From assembly GCA_049511215.1 (NCBI GenBank), contig JBEKYG010000001.1:1-41200 (forward strand): a DNA stretch of 41,200 bases. The letters are read 5' to 3'. Origin of the DNA: Acidobacteriota bacterium (GTDB taxonomy: Bacteria; Acidobacteriota; UBA6911). The first letter of the stretch is position 1; each line of letters starts with the position of its first letter. The position numbers were made by a program, and so were the translations under genes. The notes beneath the pieces are model-generated. The model was not told where the DNA came from and made no database searches. It was given only the letters and a program-made list of their open reading frames with translations. This document shows positions 6,144-24,633 of this stretch, piece by piece.

Positions 6144-6565
6144 TACTCCTTCACCCTTTCTTGCGAGAGGTCTTTCTTGATGCTATCGAGGATGCCGTTC
6201 ACGAATTGCGCCGACTCGTTGGTGGAGAATTTCTTGGCAATCTCCAGGGCCTCGTTGATCACCACGGTGTCTGGCGTTTTGGCGTCCGAGGTTAATTCGA
6301 AAACCGCCAGGCGCAGAACATTGCGGTCGACCGCGGCCATCCGGCTCAGGCGCCAGTTCTTGGTGTGGCCTTGGATGAGCCGATCGATTTCCTTCAGGCG
6401 GTTGAGCGTCCCCCTGAACAGGTCGTTGGCAAATTCGCGCACCTTCTCGGGCTGCTCGTTCATGTCCCAGAAAGTCTCCAGGATCGTGTCGAGGGCATGC
6501 TTACCCACGTCATGTTCGTAGAGCATTTGAAGTGCGCATTCGCGTGCGGTCCTTCTAAGTCCCAT
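6143..6565 (-). CDS. nusB: Transcription antitermination factor NusB
   Basis: 140 aa, [20 protein letters not shown]...[13 protein letters not shown]...FVNGILD. Its stop overlaps the lysS start (TAATG). Confidence 0.9.
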
Positions 6566-6623
6566 TTTTGATGATGCGGTCCAAGGATGTGGTAAACAGG
6601 GATGCGCTGGTGCGTTCGCGGCT

Positions 6624-7088
6624 CTATAACTGTTTCAAAACCTGAACCATTTCTATCGCCGAAAGGGCGGCGTCAAACCCTCGGTTCCCTGACTTAAGGC
6701 CTGCCCGATCAATTGCCTGTTCCAGGGTGTTGCACGTAAGGATACCATAGATCACCGGGATTCCGGATTCCAGGCCGATGTTCCCGATTCCCTTGGTCAC
6801 GGCCGAGGAGAGGTACTCAAAATGCGGGGTCTCCCCTTGCAGCAACGCACCCAGACAAATGACGGCGTCATAATTGCGCGAGAGCGCCAGCTTTTTGGCT
6901 GCCAGGACAATTTCGAAAGCGCCGGGTACCCAACACGTGGTGATATCGTCCGCCACGGCGCCGTGCCGCTCCAGAGCGTCGATCGCGCCGTTTAAGAGAC
7001 GATCGCTGATAAATGAATTGAATCGGCTGATGACGATCGCGAATCGACTTCCGGTCGCATCCAGTTTCCCTTGGATAATCCTGGACAT
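6624..7088 (-). CDS. ribH: 6,7-dimethyl-8-ribityllumazine synthase
   Basis: Reads MSRIIQGKLDATGSRFAIVISRFN...VPGAFE...GVIYGILT, the lumazine synthase signature. GGAGG lies 5 nt upstream of the ATG at 7088. Confidence 0.9.
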   Translation of the reverse strand: MSRIIQGKLDATGSRFAIVISRFNSFISDRLLNGAIDALERHGAVADDITTCWVPGAFEIVLAAKKLALSRNYDAVICLGALLQGETPHFEYLSSAVTKGIGNIGLESGIPVIYGILTCNTLEQAIDRAGLKSGNRGFDAALSAIEMVQVLKQL

Positions 7089-16251: not shown

Positions 16252-17514
16252 ATGCACAAGTTAGAGATCCAAATTCCAGCTCAATCCGATGGAGAAGTAT
16301 CATCTGCAACTTCTCGGCAGGCCATTGGAGGCCACTTGAAGAGCACTCTTCTGTATTGTGCATTTATCCTGACGGCGTTCGCCGCCGCCGGGTCAGTGGT
16401 TTTTCATGCAAATGCTCTGGCGACGCTGACCAGTCAGTCTCAGGGGAAATCGTTCAATGCCGGCGGCCTGCGTTCGTTTGAAATTGTTCCGTTGGAGACC
16501 GTTTCGGAAACATCCGCCAACGCCAGCATTGGCGACCTCAATGGCGATGGGAACCTCGATATTGTGTTGGCCAAGGGCCGTCATTGGGAGGTGCCCAGCC
16601 GGATTTTTTTCGGTGACGGCAAAGGAAACTTCACGCCGGGGCCACCTCTTCCGAGTAAAGCCACCAAGACCTACTCGGCGTCCTTGGTCGATATGACCAA
16701 GAGCGGCCATCTGGATATGGTTCTGAGCAATGATGAGCCGGAACCGAAGTTGGTCCTACTCAACGATGGCAAAGGTAATTACACCATTGGCGGGACTTAT
16801 GGCGACCCAAAGTGGTCAACCAGAAACGCAGCCGTTGGGGACTTGAACGGTGACGGCTATCCGGATATCGCTGTCGCGAATCGCGGCATGACGAGCTATG
16901 TCTGCTTCAATGATGGCAAACTCCATTTCCATTGCCGTCCGCTGCCGGACTCGCCGAGCTCGGCGACGGTGGCCATTGCCGATATTGACGGCGATGGCGC
17001 GAACGATGTGATTTATGCCTGCCGGGATGAATGCCAAAGCGCTGTCTATTTCAACGACGGCAAGGGAAACTTCACTCGCAAAGAGCCCTGGGGACCGCCG
17101 AAATCATCCACACGCGCGATGGCGGTCGCCGACTTTGACGGTGATGGCCATCTGGACATCGCCGCGTGCCACGAGAAGCTGGGCTGCTTTGTGTACCTCA
17201 ATGACGGCAAAGGCCACTTTGGCAGGGGTATTCAATTCCAGACGCCCGAGGCGTTGCCCTATTCCATGACCGCCGCGGATCTGAATCGCGACGGTCGGCC
17301 TGAGATTATTGTCGGCTATGTCAAAGCTCCGGGAGTAATCTATTTCAACGACGGCACGGGGAAAAAGTATCAGCCAGAGCCATTCGGCGACGGCAAGGGA
17401 GCGATCTATGGCATGGCGGCAGCCGATCTGGATGGCGACGGATGGCCCGATGTCGTCGTGGCGCGATCCGACGCGCCCTGCTTTGTGATGTTTAACCGCC
17501 CACCCAAGAAATGA
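16252..17514 (+). CDS. FG-GAP/VCBS-repeat beta-propeller protein, membrane-anchored or secreted
   Basis: Seven Dx[DN]xDGxxD-type blades: GDLNGDGNLDIV, VDMTKSGHLDMV, GDLNGDGYPDIA, ADIDGDGANDVI, ADFDGDGHLDIA, ADLNRDGRPEII and ADLDGDGWPDVV. N-terminal hydrophobic helix TLLYCAFILTAFAAAGSVVF. The start is uncertain (16252, 16213 or 16099). Confidence 0.8.
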   Translation: MHKLEIQIPAQSDGEVSSATSRQAIGGHLKSTLLYCAFILTAFAAAGSVVFHANALATLTSQSQGKSFNAGGLRSFEIVPLETVSETSANASIGDLNGDGNLDIVLAKGRHWEVPSRIFFGDGKGNFTPGPPLPSKATKTYSASLVDMTKSGHLDMVLSNDEPEPKLVLLNDGKGNYTIGGTYGDPKWSTRNAAVGDLNGDGYPDIAVANRGMTSYVCFNDGKLHFHCRPLPDSPSSATVAIADIDGDGANDVIYACRDECQSAVYFNDGKGNFTRKEPWGPPKSSTRAMAVADFDGDGHLDIAACHEKLGCFVYLNDGKGHFGRGIQFQTPEALPYSMTAADLNRDGRPEIIVGYVKAPGVIYFNDGTGKKYQPEPFGDGKGAIYGMAAADLDGDGWPDVVVARSDAPCFVMFNRPPKK

Positions 17515-17646
17515 GTGTAAAGTTGGCCTTCCTCAAGCTTGATAGCAGTCTGGGCTAAAGTCTGTTCACTCCATCTCTCCCTAAAGCAATCACTATCGAA
17601 AACTCCTGCTGTGACGCATGAAAAGGTCATGATCCCTCTGGGTGGC

Positions 17647-17740
17647 GATCATCGGTATCGCTATCGCAGTCGCAATCGCAATCGGCTTTTTCAGGCTGGC
17701 AAGACCGATTGCGACTGCGATCCCGATACCGATCCCGATC
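17647..17740. repeat. GATCGG-type hairpin element, copy B, one base from the transposase-element terminus
   Basis: The arm gatcatcggtatcgctatcgcagtcgcaatcgcaatcgg pairs with ccgattgcgactgcgatcccgataccgatcccgatc, giving a stem of about 33 bp with a 6-nt tandem indel. Confidence 0.7.
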
Positions 17741-17741
17741 T

Positions 17742-18690
17742 GGGGACATAATACTTATCTCTGCGCGATCGGCGCACCGCTGCAAGTCGGATTCCTGCGG
17801 TCCAAGCGGGACCGTCCTTGCCGCTATCCCTCGAAAAGAAGTTGATCCTTCAAGAAAGAGTCGCTCATTCGCGCCTTTGGGCAGTCAGTAAGAGTGAAGT
17901 GTTTCGGGAGGACCCATGGCCCGCAGGGCGCGCGTTGTAGTCCCCGGTATCCCACACCACATCACCCAACGCGGCGTCCGCGCCATGAGGATCTTTTTCA
18001 GCCTGGAAGACCGTCTCGAGTATCTGTGGCTTCTGCGTTATCATGACGGGATTCACGGTTTGCATTTCGCATCTTACACGCTCATGGACAATCATGTCTT
18101 GTGGTTATTCCCGAACGGGAAGATAGCCTGCGCAGAGCGATCGGCGAGGCCCAGCGGCTTTACACTCGAGGCATCAACTTCAGGGTGGGGAAACGAGGCT
18201 ACCTGTTCCAGGGACGCCCCTTTTCCTGCCCGCTGGATGAGGACCATTATTTCGCGGCATTCCGTTATGTTGAGCGCAATCCTACTCGAGCAGGGATGGC
18301 AGCGCAGCCATGGGATTATTTGTGGTCTGGAGCGCGATTCCACGTGGGGCTCGTGGGAATCGATCCATTGATCGACGTCGATGTCTTGGAGCACTGGCGC
18401 GGCGACCCGGAGCAATGGCGACAGTTGTTGCAGACGGATCCGCCCGAAATGCTGACTCTCCAGAAGAAAACCAGGACCGGCCGGCCATGTGGAAGCAGAG
18501 CATTTGTCGATCGGCTCCAGGAGATTAGCGGAAGGGTTCTCCTTCCCCGCCGCCCTGGACCACGCCCACGGGCTTGATGTTCGGAGATACCCGCCTCCCC
18601 ACTTCAAAGCATCCCAGCGGGCAGCTCGATACTGCTGTCTCAAGGGATTCTGTGGCCGACCCCGCAATCCAAGATGAGTATTATGTCCCC
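17742..18690 (+). mobile_element. Y1/HUH (IS200/RAYT-like) transposase element, copy 2 (about 0.95 kb)
   Basis: Termini ggggacataatacttatct (17742-17760) and agatgagtattatgtcccc (18672-18690) are 18/19 inverted repeats. They enclose a single transposase gene. Confidence 0.75.
17916..18577 (+). pseudogene. Y1 (HUH) tyrosine transposase, frameshifted inside the HUH motif
   Basis: Frame 1 reads MARRARVVVPGIPHHITQRG...YTLMDNHV, then runs off. Frame 3 continues (L)VVIPEREDSLRRAIGEAQRLY...FAAFRYVERNPTRAG. The canonical sequence would be NHVHLVVIP, implying a 1- or 4-nt deletion near 18093-18100. Confidence 0.8.
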
Positions 18691-18962
18691 GGATTTTTGC
18701 CAGCAGTGCGGTTCACCTTCTGAGAGAAGAAGAGATACTCGATCTAACCCGGAATTTCTAGAGGGAATCACTTGCCTTCTAACCGGAATTTTGTCAATAA
18801 TTTAGCCTTTAGACTTCTTGTCCTGTCCATGGCCGCGAATTCCATTCTGTTGCGATCTGAGGTGGGGCGGATGCGGGATATTATGTGGAAGGGCAATTGC
18901 CGTACGCATGATCTGGTGTTGCCGATCCCGATCAGCAAATCGTATTCTTCAAGTAGGGAATC

Positions 18963-19256
18963 ATGATGCGGTTTAACTTTGAATAGGACCCTGCCAAGGC
19001 AAGATCGAACAGGAAAAAACATGGTGTGAGTTTTGAGCTTGCCGCAAGCGTCTTCAGGGATCCGCGGGCATTGTCCGTTTTCGACACGGACCACAGTGAG
19101 GATGAAGGCCGTTGGATCACGCTCGGAGTGGCAGCCACCGATGTCATTCTGATCGTGAACCACACATTTGACGCGATCGACGAAGAAACCGTCGAGATTC
19201 GAATATTTTCGAGCCGCAAGGCAACGAAACGGGAGCAGAAGAACTATGCTGAGTAA
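18963..19256 (+). pseudogene. brnT: BrnT-family (DUF497) ribonuclease toxin with an amber codon at codon 8
   Basis: Reads MMRFNFE*DPAKARSNRKKHGVSFELAASVFRDPRALSVFDTDHSEDEGRWITLG...IRIFSSRKATKREQKNY. TAG (18984-18986) sits where the family has the conserved Trp of F-x-W-D. Confidence 0.75.
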
Positions 19257-19461
19257 GGGCATGAGAAAGGAATATGATTTCTCCAAGGGGGAACGAGGCA
19301 AATTCTTCAGGAAAGACGCCGAGTCCAATCTCCCGGTCTACTTGGATGCTGACAACCTGTCTTTCATTACCACGATCGCCGAGCGCAAGAAATCCGATAT
19401 TTCCGAGGTCGTTAACGATCTGATCCGATCAGATAAGGATCTCGCGAAGGTGATGAAATAA
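19246..19461 (+). CDS. BrnA-like antitoxin with a ribbon-helix-helix C-terminus
   Basis: Reads (MLSKG)MRKEYDFSKGERGKFF....LPVYLDADNLSFITTIAERKKSDISEVVNDLI. It overlaps the end of brnT. An alternative start lies at 19261. Confidence 0.6.
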   Translation: MLSKGMRKEYDFSKGERGKFFRKDAESNLPVYLDADNLSFITTIAERKKSDISEVVNDLIRSDKDLAKVMK

Positions 19462-19620
19462 GCGCATCGTAATAGAGTTCGATCGCGACGCGCGCCATTG
19501 CGGCAAAGAAAGGGCTGTTTGTGGCGTTTGGGAAACCGGCGATTCACGAAGTTGACCTTTGGGGGATCGGTGCCGGACCAGGCGAAGTCTTTCGAATCTG
19601 ACAGAATGAGCATTCATGGA

Positions 19621-19690
19621 GGGCCTGAAAATAGGGCTTGCGTTCGATTTTCGACCCTCTTTTTTCGTTCTATGGCATTCCCCAGGCGAC
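19621..19690. repeat. Left arm of an inverted-repeat pair of about 70 bp (MITE/REPIN-like)
   Basis: gggcttgcgttcgattttcgaccctcttttttcgttc... matches the reverse complement of 19903-19970 at roughly three quarters or more of positions by eye. Confidence 0.55.
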
Positions 19691-19902
19691 GAATCCCGGC
19701 GGTGCCGATCAAAATGTTGGCCGGGCGCATGACGGTGCGCTTCGGGCGACCGTCTACTGCCTCGGCACAAGAATGGGCGGGAGTAGCAAAAAAAGCGGTC
19801 GACGCGACGCGCCTTTTGCGCCGCTCTTCCTCATTGCTTTTCCTCTTTGTCCGAGGCGTTCAGCGGCTACAGAAGTATCAGTTTTTTCGTGTCGCGATCA
19901 AG

Positions 19903-19970
19903 CCACGGGGAACAATCCTTGGAACGAAAAAAACAGGCCCGAAAATCGAGCGCAAGCCCGGTTTTAAGGG
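19903..19970. repeat. Right arm of the inverted-repeat pair of about 70 bp
   Basis: ggaacgaaaaaaacaggcccgaaaatcgagcgcaagccc is the reverse-complement partner of 19621-19690. Confidence 0.55.
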
Positions 19971-20017
19971 TATGTCTGAGAGGCATCGTTTGGGAATCAT
20001 TCAACTTGCCGTGGTCC

Positions 20018-20034
20018 GACTTAACCGGCCAATC
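20018..20034. repeat. Left terminal inverted repeat of the integrative element
   Basis: Exact 17-nt reverse complement of 23938-23954. Confidence 0.75.
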
Positions 20035-20063
20035 GGGCAGGATAGAACCATAGATGAATGGTT

Positions 20064-20098
20064 TTTTTCTTCAGTTGAGTGCTGTTTTTCTTCAGTTG
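20064..20098 (+). repeat. Two direct 14-bp repeats (TTTTTCTTCAGTTG) spaced 21 bp apart, 30 bp inside the left terminus
   Basis: 20064-20077 and 20085-20098 are identical. Confidence 0.7.
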
Positions 20099-20217
20099 GT
20101 TTATTTTGTTTCCCAGAGGCAGAAAAGAGCAAGGCCCCAACCGTTCACAGCGGCTGGGGCCCGAAACATCCGGAACTGGTCTTAGCAGCTCCGCACCCGA
20201 GGATAAGCCTGCCATGA

Positions 20218-20688
20218 TCGACGTCCGTTGTCGAGCCCTGCCTTCAGGAAGACAGCGACACCCTGCCAAGCGAGTTTCGCCAGCGGACATGTCGAGGCCC
20301 AGGATGCGCCAGAGCCTTTTTTGTCTGCCGCCATTGTGACCGAGGGCAGCGTTACTGCAGTCAAGAGTGCCGCCGCCAAGGGCGGTTAGAGCAACGACGC
20401 AAGGCCAACAAGATCTACCAGCAAACCCTGACTGCAAAGCTCGATCATGCAGATCGCCAACGCGCGTATGTCCAGCGCCAGAAGCTCAAAAGCAAAAAAG
20501 TGACAGGTCAAGGTAGCGACGCGGGCGATCCGTCTGCCAGGATGGTTGCGGCACCAAAAAGTACCGGGGATACATCTCGACCCGTGCAACGACAGGCGGC
20601 TGATGAAAAGCCGATCCATTCCAGCCTGGTTTTTTGCATTATTTGCGGCGGATCTGGGTTGCCCACGTTTTTGCAGCACTCGCCGTGA
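20218..20688 (+). other. Cys-rich zinc-ribbon-like ORF without a canonical start (possible decayed accessory gene of the element)
   Basis: The open frame reads ..RQRTCRGPGCARAFFVCRHCDRGQRYCSQECRRQGRLEQRRKANKIYQQTLTAKLDHADRQRAYVQRQK....SLVFCIICGGSG.. There is no ATG/GTG/TTG before the GTG at 20500, and an ATG at 20214 lies in another frame. Confidence 0.35.
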
Positions 20689-20764
20689 GAGAACACCGGG
20701 GGTTCCGCCGCGACCTTGATTGCAGATATCAGCCGAGGTCCTTGGGTCATGAGAAGGGCTTTCC

Positions 20765-21769
20765 ATGCAAAGCGATTTTGAATCCTTGAAGCGAGAGATT
20801 CCGTTGTTGCCCTACCTGGCCCGGTATGACTGGAAAGGACGGCCAGTCGGTTCCCAACAGGAGTTTGTGGGATTGTGTCCACTCCACACGGAAAGCAAGC
20901 CGTCGTTCTACGTCAACGCCCGCAAAAATGTCTTCTACTGCCATGGATGTGGCCATGGCGGCGATGTAATTCGTTTTGTCCAGCTTTATCGAAATCTTTC
21001 ATTTCACCAAGCTCTTGTGCAGCTGAAGCAAGAACTGGCTGTGCCTGAAGCGTCTCCCCACGAGGTGCTGAAGGAATCATGGGCTTTCTACCAAAGCCAG
21101 GTCCCCTGCCACGGTGAGGCTCTTTACTACCTCCACACCCGAGGCCTGCATGATCCCGCACTCATGCGCCAGATCGGCATAGGGTATGCCCCCGGAGGAT
21201 CTCTGCGCCGTCACCTGATTCAATTGGGCTACCCATTGGGTCGGCTCCTGCAATCAGGGCTGATTAATGGAAGCGGCCATGACACTTTCTTCCGTCGCAT
21301 CGTGTTTCCATGTTTCGATCAAGATCGTCTCGTCAATCTTTACGGTCGCAGCATCGGCAGTGATCCGCCCCATCGGTTTCTTCCTTTTCCAAAAGGCGGC
21401 CTTTTTGCCTGGAATACGGTACGCACCTGCCCTGCCGTGATTTTGGTCGAAGGTCCGCTCGATCTGGCGGTCCTTTGGCAGGCCGGCTTTGTGAACACCA
21501 CCTGTGGTTTTGGCATACACCTGAGCCGCCTGCAACTTTCGCAACTGTGCGATGCTCCCGAACGCCAGGTTTTCATAGCCTTCGACTCTGATCCGAACGG
21601 CGCCGGCCAAAGTGCCGCTCGCTTCTTGGCGCAACGGGTCACTCATGCCGGCCTGACAGCGCACATTGTCGACCTCCCCCTGGGACATGACCCCAACAGC
21701 TACTTTGTCTCAGGGGCAAGGGCGGCAGACTTCCGCCGCTGCCTTGATCTGGCGGAGGCCTTGCCATGA
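20765..21769 (+). CDS. DnaG-like primase (CHC2 zinc finger + Toprim), no helicase-binding domain
   Basis: CHC2 finger CPLHTESKPSFYVNARKNVFYCHGCGHGGDVIRF. Toprim acidic motifs VILVEGPLD and AFDSDPNG. Its stop overlaps the next start (ATGA). Confidence 0.8.
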   Translation: MQSDFESLKREIPLLPYLARYDWKGRPVGSQQEFVGLCPLHTESKPSFYVNARKNVFYCHGCGHGGDVIRFVQLYRNLSFHQALVQLKQELAVPEASPHEVLKESWAFYQSQVPCHGEALYYLHTRGLHDPALMRQIGIGYAPGGSLRRHLIQLGYPLGRLLQSGLINGSGHDTFFRRIVFPCFDQDRLVNLYGRSIGSDPPHRFLPFPKGGLFAWNTVRTCPAVILVEGPLDLAVLWQAGFVNTTCGFGIHLSRLQLSQLCDAPERQVFIAFDSDPNGAGQSAARFLAQRVTHAGLTAHIVDLPLGHDPNSYFVSGARAADFRRCLDLAEALP

Positions 21770-22797
21770 TGCCCTTCCGCCTCCGCTTTGACGATTCTGG
21801 CACCGCAGGCACTTCTCCATACCGGATCGTGGATGCCCGGAACCAGGAGCTACGTTGGACTAACCACTTTCTCGACGTGCAGTGCCTACGCAACTTCTCG
21901 CCCCGGTCACTTCGGTCCTATGGCTATGACCTGTTGAACTTCGCGCGCTGGTGGTGCCGCCGCAAATCCAGTTCTCTGGCTCAGCTGAATGAATCTCTTC
22001 TTCTGGAGTACGTCCGTCATCAACTTCAAACGCAACCCCAGCCCACACCTCAGACCGTGAATCACCGCCTTGGTGTGGTGCGTTGCCTTTACCGTTTTCA
22101 CTATCGCCGGGATATCCCACACGACCGCATCCGAACCTAGTACCAAACCCGACGCCCTGTCGGTTATGGCAGACCCGTGCGCAAAATCGTCGGCCTGCGT
22201 TTGAAACAGCCCCGCCGCGTCATCATCCCTCTATCTCATGAAGAGGTCGCTCGGTTCTGGGCCAGCTTCCGTACCTATCGCGATCTCGGCATTATCGCCT
22301 TGATGCTCTTTAACGGCCTCCGCTCGCGCGAGATCATCGAACTCCGGCTTGAGGATGTCCGTTTTCCCGAGCTCCAGTTCCGCGTCTGTGGCAAGGGCAA
22401 CAAAGAGAGAATGCTGCCGCTTTCGGAAGACACCATGGCGACGCTGCAGCGGTATCTCGACTTTGAAAGACCTCGTGTCTCATCGCCTTTTGTCTTCCTG
22501 TGTTTGAAAGGCCGCCGGCGCGGCCGTCCTATGACCGCCGCGGGCCTCCGCTCCCTGTTTCGCCATCATCGCCGGACTGCTGAGGTCCCCATGGCCAACC
22601 CTCATAGATTCCGCCATACCTTCGGAGCGGATATGGTACGTTGCGGCATCTCGCTGCCCGCCTTAATGCATTTGATGGGACACTCCCGCATTCCAACCAC
22701 CATGCTTTACGTGAGGCTTTCTCCCGAGGATGTCTGGCGCGAATATCGCCGGGCACTTCAAAACAGAATTCCACTCTCCCCGCCACTGCAACCATGA
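21766..22797 (+). pseudogene. Tyrosine recombinase A, interrupted by an in-frame TAG
   Basis: The N-terminal SAM-like domain (21766-22137) and the catalytic domain (from 22141) are in the same frame and are separated only by TAG 22138-22140. Catalytic R (NGLRSRE), HxxR (HRFRHTF), H (GHSRI) and Y (MLY) are present. Confidence 0.75.
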
Positions 22798-23932
22798 AAA
22801 AACACCCGCGCCGCAACCTGCAAGAGTGGTTTGACTACGAGATCCAAAACCTTGCCACCGTGCTGCGTCCGACGACCATCGAGCTGTATCAGCTTGCAGC
22901 AAAATCCTTTCTGTCCTACCTTCATGCTCAGTGGCCGAATGTCCGCGGACCCTCGCACTTGCGCCGTGATCCCCATATCCTCGGCTGGCTCCGCAGCCTG
23001 TGTCAACGACAGCCGCCGCTGGCGAACAAAACCCGTACGGAAAGGATCATCAATGTTCGCCGCCTGATCCGCGATCTGGAGACAAGCAGCGATCCGCCCC
23101 GCGAAAATTTTTCGCCCCTGGAGATTGCCCCGCTCCTGACAGGTACCTTCCTAAACCGCTATCCCCGGAAGACGACCGGCGGCTGCAACAACGACTTCTC
23201 GAGAGACCGACTTTGCGTTCGAAAGCCCTATGGATTCTCAGAGCAACTGGAATGCGCATCGGCGAATGCCGCATGCTTACGGTTGATTCCTTGCGCGACC
23301 TGGGGCAGGACCAGTGGGCTGTGCGCGTTCCCTTGGGAAAACTCCATACCGAAAGATGGGTTCCGGTCGATGACGATACCCGCAGGATCTTTAACAGCAT
23401 TCTTGATCAGAGGCCTTCGAACCCAGACATGCGGGACACCCGGAACCCCGGGTTTTTGCTGCTGCAGAAAAACGGCAAGCCTCCTTCCTATATGTCCATG
23501 AGAGAAGAACTCATCATTGCGGCCCACGAGGCGGGGTGCTCTGTCCAACCTACGCTGCACCAGATGCGGCATACCTTTGCAACAGAAATGCTCAGAGCCG
23601 GAGCGAGTTTGCCTGCTGTCAAGGCACTACTGGGACACCAAACGCTGGAAATGACCATGCGCTATGTTCAGGTCAGCCAAGTCGATCTGCAACGCGAATA
23701 CCACCGAGCCCGAGCCAAAATGGCAGAAATCCATGCCGCCCCTGGACTGCCTAAGACACTTGCGCCCGATCTGACGAGCCTGCACGGGCTGCTCACTGAG
23801 GCTGCCCACGTGATGGAAATGTATCGACGTCAGATCAGCGACGTGAAAAAGAATCGTCACTTGGCACGACTCGTCAATCGCATAGCCAAAATTTTAGCCG
23901 AGTTCAAACTTGCTCAAGGAAGTACAAAATAA
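22794..23932 (+). pseudogene. Tyrosine recombinase B, frameshifted in an A4T5 run
   Basis: The N-terminal frame (MKKHPRRNLQEWF...RLIRDLETSSDPPRE) switches frame near 23104-23112 to ..DRYLPKPLSPEDDRRL...ATGMRIGE..HQMRHTFA..LLGHQTLEMTMRY. The start overlaps the recombinase A stop (ATGA). Confidence 0.75.
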
Positions 23933-23937
23933 GCACA

Positions 23938-23954
23938 GATTGGCCGGTTAAGTC
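23938..23954. repeat. Right terminal inverted repeat of the integrative element
   Basis: Exact 17-nt reverse complement of 20018-20034. It begins 5 nt after the recombinase B stop. Confidence 0.75.
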
Positions 23955-24443
23955 CCTGATCAGTTTGGTTTGACGGTCCTCGCCGGTTACCAGGTCGTAG
24001 GCCAGCTGGATCTGCTGGTCCGAACCCACCACTTCCGATGCGTGCATGCCGCCGTCGATATAAACGACGGCCTTGCCTTCCTCTGCGAGTTTGTGGGCCT
24101 CGGCCGCAGCTGTTCCCCGCGCCAGGCTCAGCTTTTTGGTGATCCCTTTGAAGCGGTCGAGGTCTTTCATGGCCTCTTCCGAGGAAATGACCGCATATTT
24201 CTGGCGTCTTCCCATCGAGGTCGGCCCCATATCGAGTACTTTGATGCGCGGGGACTGGCTCGCCAGCAGCTCGAGATAGCCGATGGCCTGCTCGTAGGTG
24301 GCCAGCTTGTAGTCCGCACCGACCTTGAACCCGAGGAACTTCTCCGGCGTCGTGATTTCGGCGGAACGTGCCGGAAGACATACAGCGATGAGCATAATGG
24401 TGCCCGCAAGAAACAGCAAAGACGTGCGTCGCACGGTTGCCAT
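23955..24443 (-). pseudogene. M14-family metallocarboxypeptidase, N-terminal fragment of about 165 aa only
   Basis: Reads MATVRRTSLLFLAGTIMLIAVCLPARSAE (signal peptide) ..EKFLGFKVGADYKLATYEQAIGYLELLA...GKAVVYIDGGMHASEVVG (HxxE zinc motif) ..TKLIRD. The frame then runs into the element repeat and stops. AGGAG lies upstream of the ATG at 24443. Confidence 0.7.
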
Positions 24444-24597
24444 AATTTCTCCTGTCATGAAGGACTGATGGTTGCAAGGTATGAAGGCGGCTGCCCATGC
24501 ACGGCCGATTCGCCGCAGCGGGCGCGGCGGAGAGGATTTTTAACGAGGATTCTGGTGAGCATGGCACCAAGCAGCATGTGGCTGCGACCGAGGTAAC

Positions 24598-24633
24598 GGC
24601 TGAAGCGGCGGCCGTCCGGCCACCGCTTCAGCC
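24598..24633 (-). terminator. Perfect 11-bp stem hairpin just downstream of the TonB-dependent receptor gene (no U-tract)
   Basis: ggctgaagcgg (24598-24608) pairs with ccgcttcagcc (24623-24633); the receptor stop is at 24641. Confidence 0.4.

Follow-up and report, generated by a model that had tools for sequence, protein, structure and literature searches.

Tn554-related transposons with their own primase: a probable cargo-free family of about 4 kb, mainly in Acidobacteriota, and its defective copy in a UBA6911 genome

Bacterial transposons that move by tyrosine recombinases are recognised in five groups, namely integrative and conjugative or mobilizable elements (ICE/IME), strand-biased circularizing elements (SE), GInt, RIT and Tn554, none of which carries a primase (PMC10214605). 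In Tn554 a short sequence of 6-7 nt adjacent to the ends takes part in the exchange without a classical staggered-cut duplication, and for SEs exchange of one strand followed by replication has been proposed, a copy-out route for which the SE authors explicitly leave the source of the replication primer open (PMC10214605). Here we describe an element in a stretch of 41,200 nucleotides, hereafter the window, from an Acidobacteriota bacterium of the UBA6911 lineage (assembly GCA_049511215.1, contig JBEKYG010000001.1, positions 1 to 41,200). Positions 20014-23958 of the window probably represent a defective member of a large family of transposons, similar in kind to insertion sequences (IS), that are about 4 kb long, carry no cargo and occur mainly in Acidobacteriota. 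We hold with still greater confidence that the family consists of Tn554-related transposons with the ends described below. It is apparently an undescribed variant of tyrosine-recombinase transposons that is common in soil Acidobacteria, and the open-access literature searched contained no description of two tyrosine recombinases with a primase, of Tn554 with a primase or of such a combination with DUF6431.

Homologues of the window's primase number in the thousands and lie strikingly often on contigs of merely 4-5 kb. A scan of species-representative genomes returned 418 primase relatives, mostly from Acidobacteriota (Terriglobia, Bryobacterales, Solibacteraceae, Acidoferrales) and, with a patchy distribution across phyla, from Nitrospirota, Planctomycetota, Verrucomicrobiota, Hyphomicrobiales and Methylomirabilota; counts of anatomy refer to the 79 best of these loci. 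The recurrent unit is made up of a first ORF (open reading frame), the primase (~334 aa), recombinase A (~343 aa) and recombinase B (373-385 aa), with A and B following the primase at constant distances in 78 of the 79 loci. The four-gene unit also stands alone in 78 of the 79, not embedded in a larger element, which bears out the view of an initial annotation of the window, made from its letters only, that this is a compact and self-contained mobile element and neither a prophage nor an ICE. The first ORF varies: it encodes a DUF6431 protein in 67 loci and a cysteine-rich protein like that of the window in five. DUF6431 was considered as a distant relative of the cysteine-rich protein and excluded (hhalign probability 0.2%). 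A third type of first ORF ('..CCFCHRQF..CSNKACQQQRR..') precedes the primase in a few elements (L041, ~6490-6990; L071), so that the first gene would have been swapped at least twice within the family.

The ends of the elements are marked by a core with the consensus T[TC][AG]ACCGGC[CT]AAT, which family-wide precedes the primase start by ~770 bp and recurs in inverted form ~3,180 bp after it. Identity between the inverted repeats is essentially complete for 12 positions, falls to 77% at position 13 and 54% at position 14 and is at background beyond, and the 14-bp core is presumed to be a recombinase-binding arm. The left core usually has TTAACC and the right TTGACC (86% versus 72%), the window having TTAACC at both ends and one sub-lineage having ATAACC/GGTTAT instead; this difference between the ends might distinguish the two recombinases or determine directionality. 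In the window itself, the 17-mer GACTTAACCGGCCAATC that had been noted at 20018-20034, with its exact reverse complement at 23938-23954, was confirmed. These are its only two matches in the 41.2 kb, even with three mismatches permitted, and none of 100 shuffles gave this outcome. In relatives, too, the motif marks both ends and keeps a constant distance to the primase. The inverted repeat therefore stands, and what does not is its length as a trait of the family, in which only 14 of the 17 bp are conserved and the outer GAC/GTC belongs to a flanking 7-nt direct repeat.

This direct repeat was recognised in 35 elements, in which the 7 nt outside the left core (X) recur in direct orientation outside the right core (Y), with identities of 0.94, 1.0, 0.97, 0.94, 0.54, 0.57 and 0.60 at the successive positions. 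The overall identity of 0.80 drops to 0.18-0.29 when the register is shifted and never exceeds 0.535 when the pairing of X and Y is shuffled 1,000 times. The same holds in the window, where X (GTCCGAC) and Y (GTCCCTG) are equal at positions 1-4; its 17-bp repeat consists of the 14-bp core and the adjoining 3 nt of X and Y, which are complementary because X itself is palindromic (GTC-C-GAC). The only target requirements seen are four nucleotides of spacer identity and a T-rich left flank, the latter at -1 and -2; some target flanks weakly resemble the cores.

Non-coding sequence is confined to the left arm of the element, which holds the TTCTTCAGTTG motif and a GC-rich hairpin. The conserved left-arm motif, TTCTT(T/C)CAGTTG, is present in two copies in the window, and in almost all of 50 distinct left arms related motifs, (T)TATTCTTTTCCAGTTG, occur 45-100 nt inward from the left core, where they are a possible site for an accessory protein. 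The hairpin is kept in five of five elements of the cysteine-rich type with one covarying pair, which is weak evidence. Additional solitary end motifs were seen 450-4,700 bp from complete elements, some of them inverted (L035, ~10629; L031, ~1365; L097, ~14892), which suggests remnants or nested and adjacent insertions, a picture that would arise if ends already present serve well as targets.

The family is mobile and has been active recently. Long-read metagenome-assembled genomes (MAGs) contain two to four copies each that are 99.6-99.95% identical over ~3,960 bp and lie in unrelated flanks, and one metagenomic element (P0086) was found with at least five different left flanks and at least six different right flanks; loci L001, L002 and L003 are one locus seen in three samples and not three insertion sites. 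When elements were removed in silico with one 7-mer retained, two host genes were restored. At L058 the healed frame encodes a complete ADOP-family permease (TIGR03434, E = 4e-226, 753 bits versus a cutoff of 622), matched in a single stretch over profile positions 1-803 of 803 across the junction, which the Pfam domain MacB_PCD also spans. At L049 the healed frame reads "..GSFDAY-MWQ-LLEVKARF.." and in tblastn matches plasmid helicase genes as a single ungapped stretch that crosses the junction (61% identity, 2e-46), and retaining neither or both of the 7-mers breaks the frame. The target thus holds one copy of the 7-mer. These were the only two loci usable for frame restoration, most insertions being intergenic or beside other mobile elements and GC-rich DNA giving long spurious frames.

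Two peculiarities of insertion sites stand out. Several copies of P0086 abut the ends of three copies of ISAzo13-family IS at equal distance (left flanks of L007, L008, L010 and L014-L016), and the first 42 nt of the right flank are common to L010, L012, L014 and L015 before these diverge; this may reflect a preference of the element for the ends of other repeats or chimeric joins at repeats in the metagenome assemblies.

Joined ends would be predicted to consist of right core, 7 nt and left core, a 14-7-14 site built like lox or dif, with the sequence ...GATTGGCCGGT[TC]AA, 7-mer, TT[AG]ACCGGCC.... An end-to-end junction of this kind, which had been proposed earlier as a check on the element, was indeed found in circular or tandem form: the pattern has four matches in the metagenome collection, two of them together with element genes. 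One (L110) is a contig of 4,058 bp with a 90-bp terminal overlap and thus a unit of 3,968 bp, in which the junction with spacer TCGGTAA is followed by DUF6431, primase, A and B. The other (L112) is a circular permutation of 3,973 bp of the cysteine-rich subtype, with A, B, the junction (spacer CAAACTA), the cysteine-rich ORF and a primase 68% identical to that of the window, in this order. Both are either circles or head-to-tail tandems, and both forms are expected products of recombination. The remaining two matches (L111, 3759-3789 of a 45.7-kb contig; L109, 2779-2809) are solitary, with no element genes nearby; solitary palindromic sites of this sort, such as TTGGCCGGTCAA-CACGCGG-TTGACCGGCCAA, may be scars, minimal non-autonomous derivatives or natural target-like sites.

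Profile searches bore out the initial assignment of a CHC2/Toprim primase followed by two tyrosine recombinases. Recombinase A matches the Pfam SAM-like N domain (4e-8) and Phage_integrase (PF00589, 1e-28), and B matches Phage_integrase (1.5e-25). The catalytic R, K, HxxR, H and Y are kept at 90% conservation or more in both, and among 64 sufficiently long loci A is intact in 62 and B in 61. Among solved structures the two are closest to XerC, XerD and XerA, that is, to Xer-like "simple" recombinases. The earlier statement that the element could be placed in no named family did not hold up. In a comparison with actinobacterial Tn554-related modules consisting of a short recombinase, a long recombinase and DUF6262, A matched the short, TnpA-like protein (1e-57 to 1e-63), and B, aligning with the C-terminal two thirds of TnpB-like proteins, matched the long one (1e-34 to 1e-40), while the cross-pairs (A with long, B with short) reached merely 1e-12 to 1e-18. 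Against a canonical Tn554-family lnu(G) transposon the pattern was the same but weaker, with 1e-20 to 1e-30 for A with TnpA and 1e-9 to 1e-18 for B with TnpB. Judged by this pairwise similarity, A and B are homologous, as a pair, to TnpA and TnpB of Tn554-type transposons. The third protein of such transposons, TnpC (DUF6262), gave no match in the 79 loci in a tblastn search with two TnpC proteins.

The family shares with Tn554 two adjacent, overlapping tyrosine recombinase genes, the short one before the long one and both with full catalytic residues, as well as the involvement of a short end-adjacent sequence in the exchange without a classical staggered-cut duplication. It differs in that TnpC/DUF6262 is missing, the stop codon of B lies 5 nt from the right core, and B has 373-385 aa without the long N-terminal extension, compared with 484-632 aa in proteins of the TnpB type. 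Moreover, it carries a primase, a zinc-ribbon ORF, clear 14-bp inverted cores and no cargo, it uses many target sites with several copies per genome where Tn554 has one preferred att site, and its hosts are Acidobacteriota and other environmental phyla. Its spacer is inherited stably, whereas in Tn554 and in SEs the spacer is relayed from the previous site. With SEs the family has in common two tyrosine recombinases, inverted repeats (13-19 bp in SEs) flanking a short spacer across which the ends are joined, and a strictly asymmetric inheritance of that spacer, from which exchange of one strand followed by replication (copy-out) is deduced. SEs, in contrast, have the core genes intA-tfp-intB-srap, need Tfp and Srap, carry cargo (7-16 kb or more), occur in one or two copies per replicon and only in Gammaproteobacteria and encode no primase, and the family has no gene between A and B or after B; SEs are set apart here by their description and not by protein comparison. 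SCCmec-type elements combine a recombinase pair with an element-encoded helicase and primase/polymerase, which is taken as a sign of replication after excision, but they use serine recombinases and another type of primase, are much larger, carry cargo and have a single attachment site.

Two further systems are similar in outline. RIT elements are compact (~3.5 kb) and cargo-free, with overlapping tyrosine recombinase genes between inverted repeats and multiple copies in some genomes (PMC3414803), but they have three recombinases (ritA, ritB, ritC) and no primase, compared by description with two recombinases in all 78 family loci, and neither NCBIfam nor Pfam gave a RIT-specific assignment. 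The likeness to IS3/IS911 with the protein IEE is conceptual: a circle with abutted ends is made by one-strand transfer and replication, with a primase-family protein linked to the process (bioRxiv 10.1101/2023.06.07.543989), yet the chemistry is of the DDE type and IEE is host- or island-encoded and an archaeo-eukaryotic-type PrimPol rather than a DnaG-type primase. BIM (bipartite module) elements were also considered and rejected, as they consist of one recombinase and an SMC-like protein.

How the element moves may be read from the fate of the spacers. X is constant within each multi-copy lineage, and Y keeps positions 1-4 (sometimes 1-3) and then depends on the site. A constant left and a variable right spacer were seen in 19 of 19 heterologous insertions from seven lineages, with none reversed. 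Since a two-strand exchange over a heterologous 7-bp overlap would leave heteroduplex at both ends and, after replication, place the element's spacer at either end equally, a count of 19:0 would have a probability of ~2e-6 under equal placement. The simplest reading of these sequences is that one pair of strands would be exchanged beside spacer positions 1-4 and the intermediate resolved by replication.

The main competitor is a conservative cut-and-paste transposon comparable to Tn916 or CTnDOT, in which exchange involves both strands and tolerates heterology in the spacer, and in which the primase has an accessory function apart from recombination, for example in donor repair or in interference with the host. 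Such a transposon would suit the finding that identity is obligatory only at spacer positions 1-4 and heterology occurs at 5-7, which can be likened to IntDOT, an integrase that needs homology only beside the first exchange site. Both recombinases also have complete catalytic sets and would provide four active sites for a two-strand reaction. We nevertheless consider cut-and-paste movement unlikely, as it predicts the element's spacer at either end equally and not the 19 left and none reversed that were observed, and as a primase with invariant catalytic residues is kept in essentially every copy of an otherwise cargo-free element of 4 kb.

The primase matches the Pfam families Zn_ribbon_DnaG (7e-20), Toprim_3 (5e-11) and DNAG_N (2e-8), and its residues 1-327 align to residues 3-345 of Aquifex DnaG (2au3). 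The residues C38, H41, C59, C62, E229, D233, D274 and D276, which make up the CHC2, EGxxD and DxD motifs, are invariant in 31 sequences. The protein ends after the Toprim domain, without the C-terminal domain that binds the DnaB helicase, and scores 148.8 bits against TIGR01391, for which the dnaG equivalog cutoff is 283.6. The cysteine-rich protein has 106 uncharacterised homologues with a conserved C-x4-C-x6-C-x2-CDRGQxYC-x3-C cluster and matches no family in Pfam or NCBIfam. Its AlphaFold2 model shows a zinc-ribbon with a helical hairpin, with a predicted local distance difference test (pLDDT) score above 90 in the core, and has no significant fold match in the PDB (best E 0.88).

The same two proteins occur in an unrelated transposon of the DDE/IstB type (L017-L020; ~500-5900 in L018), which has genes for a ParB-like helix-turn-helix protein, a Mu-type DDE transposase, an IstB-type ATPase and a primase (P0111) that is 64% identical to that of the window, and in which a homologue of the cysteine-rich protein is encoded by an uncalled ORF (BLASTP 9e-13, hhalign probability 98.5%). 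This transposon has its own TG...CA inverted termini of ~50 bp (TGGGAGCGCCGGTTTGATATGCC...) and was found in four different flanks. Its terminal repeats contain GCCGGTTT(G/A)AT, which is faintly like the core of the tyrosine-recombinase element. The presence of the pair in two chemically unrelated transposons, one of a replicative type and one with a one-strand signature, points to a role in DNA synthesis at transposition intermediates. That the primase and the cysteine-rich protein would serve such synthesis, and not a plasmid-like maintenance of the element, is a reasonable but still tentative suggestion.

Put together, these observations lead us to a proposal that is attractive and, as a whole, somewhat more speculative than that suggestion, namely that the family consists of self-priming tyrosine-recombinase transposons. 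In such a scheme A and B would join both ends into a circle carrying the 14-7-14 site, and the circle would recombine with degenerate targets that share the first four spacer nucleotides. A single pair of strands would be exchanged, leaving the element's spacer on the left and that of the target on the right, and replication would complete the intermediate, with the element's primase priming synthesis, perhaps with the help of the zinc-ribbon protein. One-strand exchange at the lox-like site may then serve both for copying out and for inserting, with primase and zinc-ribbon partner as the suppliers of the primer, and the same module might have been adopted independently by the Mu/IstB-type DDE transposon.

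Several points weigh against this proposal. If the crossover is shorter than 7 bp and falls within positions 1-4, positions 5-7 of X are plain left arm and the 19:0 count says nothing about strands. General healing of 25 insertions with 0, 7 or 14 nt retained gave spanning frames at five, three and three loci, respectively. Both junction contigs could stem from head-to-tail tandem copies rather than from circles. At the window locus, the left flank lacks the other half of the interrupted host gene described below, so the insertion there is not fully reconstructable. Finally, most elements have a DUF6431 protein in place of the unrelated cysteine-rich protein, which leaves a specific role of the first ORF as partner of the primase uncertain.

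Another view takes up the notion of the initial annotation of an element that excises and replicates as a free replicon: the excised circle of an integrative mini-replicon would persist like a plasmid, with the primase starting autonomous replication. The two unit-length contigs with an end-to-end junction and the many family members on contigs of 4-5 kb would be in keeping with it, and a primase is a typical replicon gene. The 3.9 kb contain, however, no initiator, helicase or iteron-type origin, the primase consists of zinc-binding and polymerase domains only and lacks the helicase-binding domain, and the three to four copies per genome that long-read MAGs show integrated at different sites are enough to explain short contigs in short-read assemblies. 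The primase and cysteine-rich pair is found, in addition, in the DDE transposon with its own inverted termini, and 72,556 plasmid records hold no close relative (primase at most 32%, B at most 37% identical). The notion of a free replicon is thus unsupported, and we regard it as improbable; a multi-copy, IS-like transposon agrees better with the data, the primase more likely acting in the transposition step.

It is far less probable still that the unit is what is left of a prophage, phage satellite or ICE, the remaining genes having been lost or being located beyond the repeat. Integrase-family genes do occur beside a primase in satellites and in the replication modules of prophages. Against this origin stand the 78 of 79 loci with the four-gene unit alone between the same cores, the complete difference of the flanks between copies and the restoration of two host genes upon removal of exactly this unit, as well as the failure to find a tRNA in the window or a match to the junction pattern in the viral contigs searched. 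A fixed chromosomal system, either a Xer/dif-like resolvase pair or an invertible segment, would fit recombinases nearest to XerC, XerD and XerA and a dif/lox-like 14-7-14 junction but can practically be dismissed in view of near-identical copies at unrelated sites in single genomes, interrupted host genes and a patchy distribution across phyla.

The window copy (Table 1) is a decayed insertion in a gene for an M14 zinc carboxypeptidase. The remaining fragment matches positions 4-84 of 286 of the Pfam profile PF00246 (E 3e-11), and several alignments of M14 homologues stop at exactly 23952, running through Y to the edge of the right core, in agreement with the prediction of the insertion model. 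The initial annotation had let the similarity end exactly at the right repeat; it does end at the element, yet 3 nt inside the right 17-mer. The rest of the M14 sequence was searched throughout the window and is absent. What adjoins the element on the left is therefore not the second half of the target, and the empty site cannot be reconstructed at this locus; either this flank was replaced or part of the M14 gene was deleted. In the proposed history the element would have inserted into the peptidase gene and later gained a stop codon in recombinase A.

The gene set given initially for the window was correct, including the ATGA stop/start overlaps at 21766 and 22794 and the right repeat 5 nt past the last stop codon (23930-23932), whereas clean reading frames were not found, since three of the four genes are disrupted or startless. 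Two independent assemblies of the same locus, L102 (ENA) and L103 (Logan), are 99.96% identical to the window and allow the defects to be told apart. The in-frame TAG in recombinase A is common to all three, at a position in a poorly conserved linker where intact relatives (339-344 aa) have S, C, V or T. Recombinase B is intact (379 aa) in L102 and L103 and frameshifted solely in the window assembly, where one substitution and a 1-nt deletion (GAAAAT-TTTTC in the window, GAAGATCTTTTC in L102 and L103) put its two halves in different frames. From this distribution the stop in A is genuine, and the frameshift in B is a minor variant or a consensus error. Because of the stop codon in A, the window copy is probably incapable of moving alone.

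The cysteine-rich frame has no ATG, GTG or TTG start, and an ATG at 20214 is one base off frame. The same out-of-frame ATG (CC ATG A TCG...) is common to L005 and L104, whose primases are 78-82% identical to that of the window, and the reading frame is conserved; L005 has an in-frame TTG at the place of the displaced ATG, and more distant homologues have in-frame starts ("MPSVVE.." or "MGAVVE.."). The displaced ATG is taken here as a feature of the lineage and not as proof of decay, and it could reflect a non-canonical start, a +1 shift or an old lesion that is shared. A '232-aa ORF' in L102 was considered as an intact version of the first gene and turned out to be a spurious frame (19519-20217) that crosses the left boundary.

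Table 1. Features of the element and of its insertion site, in positions of the window.
Feature	Position	Strand	Remarks
Left 7-nt spacer X, GTCCGAC	20014-20020		Carried with the element; first 4 nt (GTCC) recur at the right end
Left 14-bp inverted-repeat core, TTAACCGGCCAATC	20021-20034	+	744 bp upstream of the primase start
Subterminal motif TTTTTCTTCAGTTG, two copies	20064-20077, 20085-20098	+	Direct repeats D2/D3
GC-rich hairpin with 12-bp stem in the non-coding left arm	20132-20162		
Cysteine-rich zinc-ribbon ORF	20218-20688	+	No canonical start codon
DnaG-like primase, 334 aa, intact	20765-21769	+	Pfam; alignment to 2au3
Tyrosine recombinase A (TnpA-like)	21766-22797	+	In-frame TAG at 22138-22140
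Tyrosine recombinase B (TnpB-like)	22794-23932	+	Frameshift at 23106-23108 in the window
Right 14-bp inverted-repeat core, GATTGGCCGGTTAA	23938-23951	-	3,173 bp downstream of the primase start
Right 7-nt spacer Y, GTCCCTG, target-derived	23952-23958		Part of M14 I-R-D, minus strand
N-terminal fragment (~169 aa) of the host M14 zinc carboxypeptidase, cut by the insertion	23952-24458	-	

Around the element, an Rfam scan of 17500-24600 gave nothing above threshold, and a scan for promoters and terminators yielded no informative signal. A BrnT toxin gene (Pfam 1.4e-14) and an overlapping ORF downstream of it, in the position of an antitoxin and with no Pfam match, lie at 19026-19461, ~560-1,000 bp to the left of the element. 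The region of 17.8-20.0 kb otherwise resembles degraded or non-coding DNA, which fits a rearranged region in which the rest of the M14 gene was lost; a RAYT-type transposase considered at 17916-18577 had no Pfam support and is not claimed. A pair of 42-nt inverted repeats (19624-19665 and 19928-19969) that are 83% complementary and 262 nt apart lies to the left of the element at a distance of 45 bp. The pair occurs nowhere else in the window, matches nothing in Rfam and may represent an insert resembling a miniature inverted-repeat transposable element or a structured RNA. Database homologues of the M14 fragment are nearly all 160-290 aa long, even on contigs of 50-490 kb, which may mean that the M14 gene is often split or truncated, or that fragments are favoured by the word-based search.

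As a decayed insertion in a truncated peptidase gene, the window copy itself is of lesser importance than the family to which it leads. In practical terms, the family is an unannotated repeat that breaks assemblies of Acidobacteriota and interrupts genes, and its recombinases are at present labelled as generic 'integrase' or 'XerC'. The movement of tyrosine-recombinase transposons with more than one recombinase is largely unresolved, and the family described here is compact, cargo-free, abundant and evidently active, with clean ends, a predicted lox-like junction and a primase of its own. If the primase acts in transposition, the family would offer a minimal, testable model of replicative transposition by tyrosine recombinases, and the presence of the same primase and zinc-ribbon pair in a DDE transposon would be explained. 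Should the self-priming proposal be true, the two proteins would form a portable 'replication-priming cassette' for replicative transposition in general.

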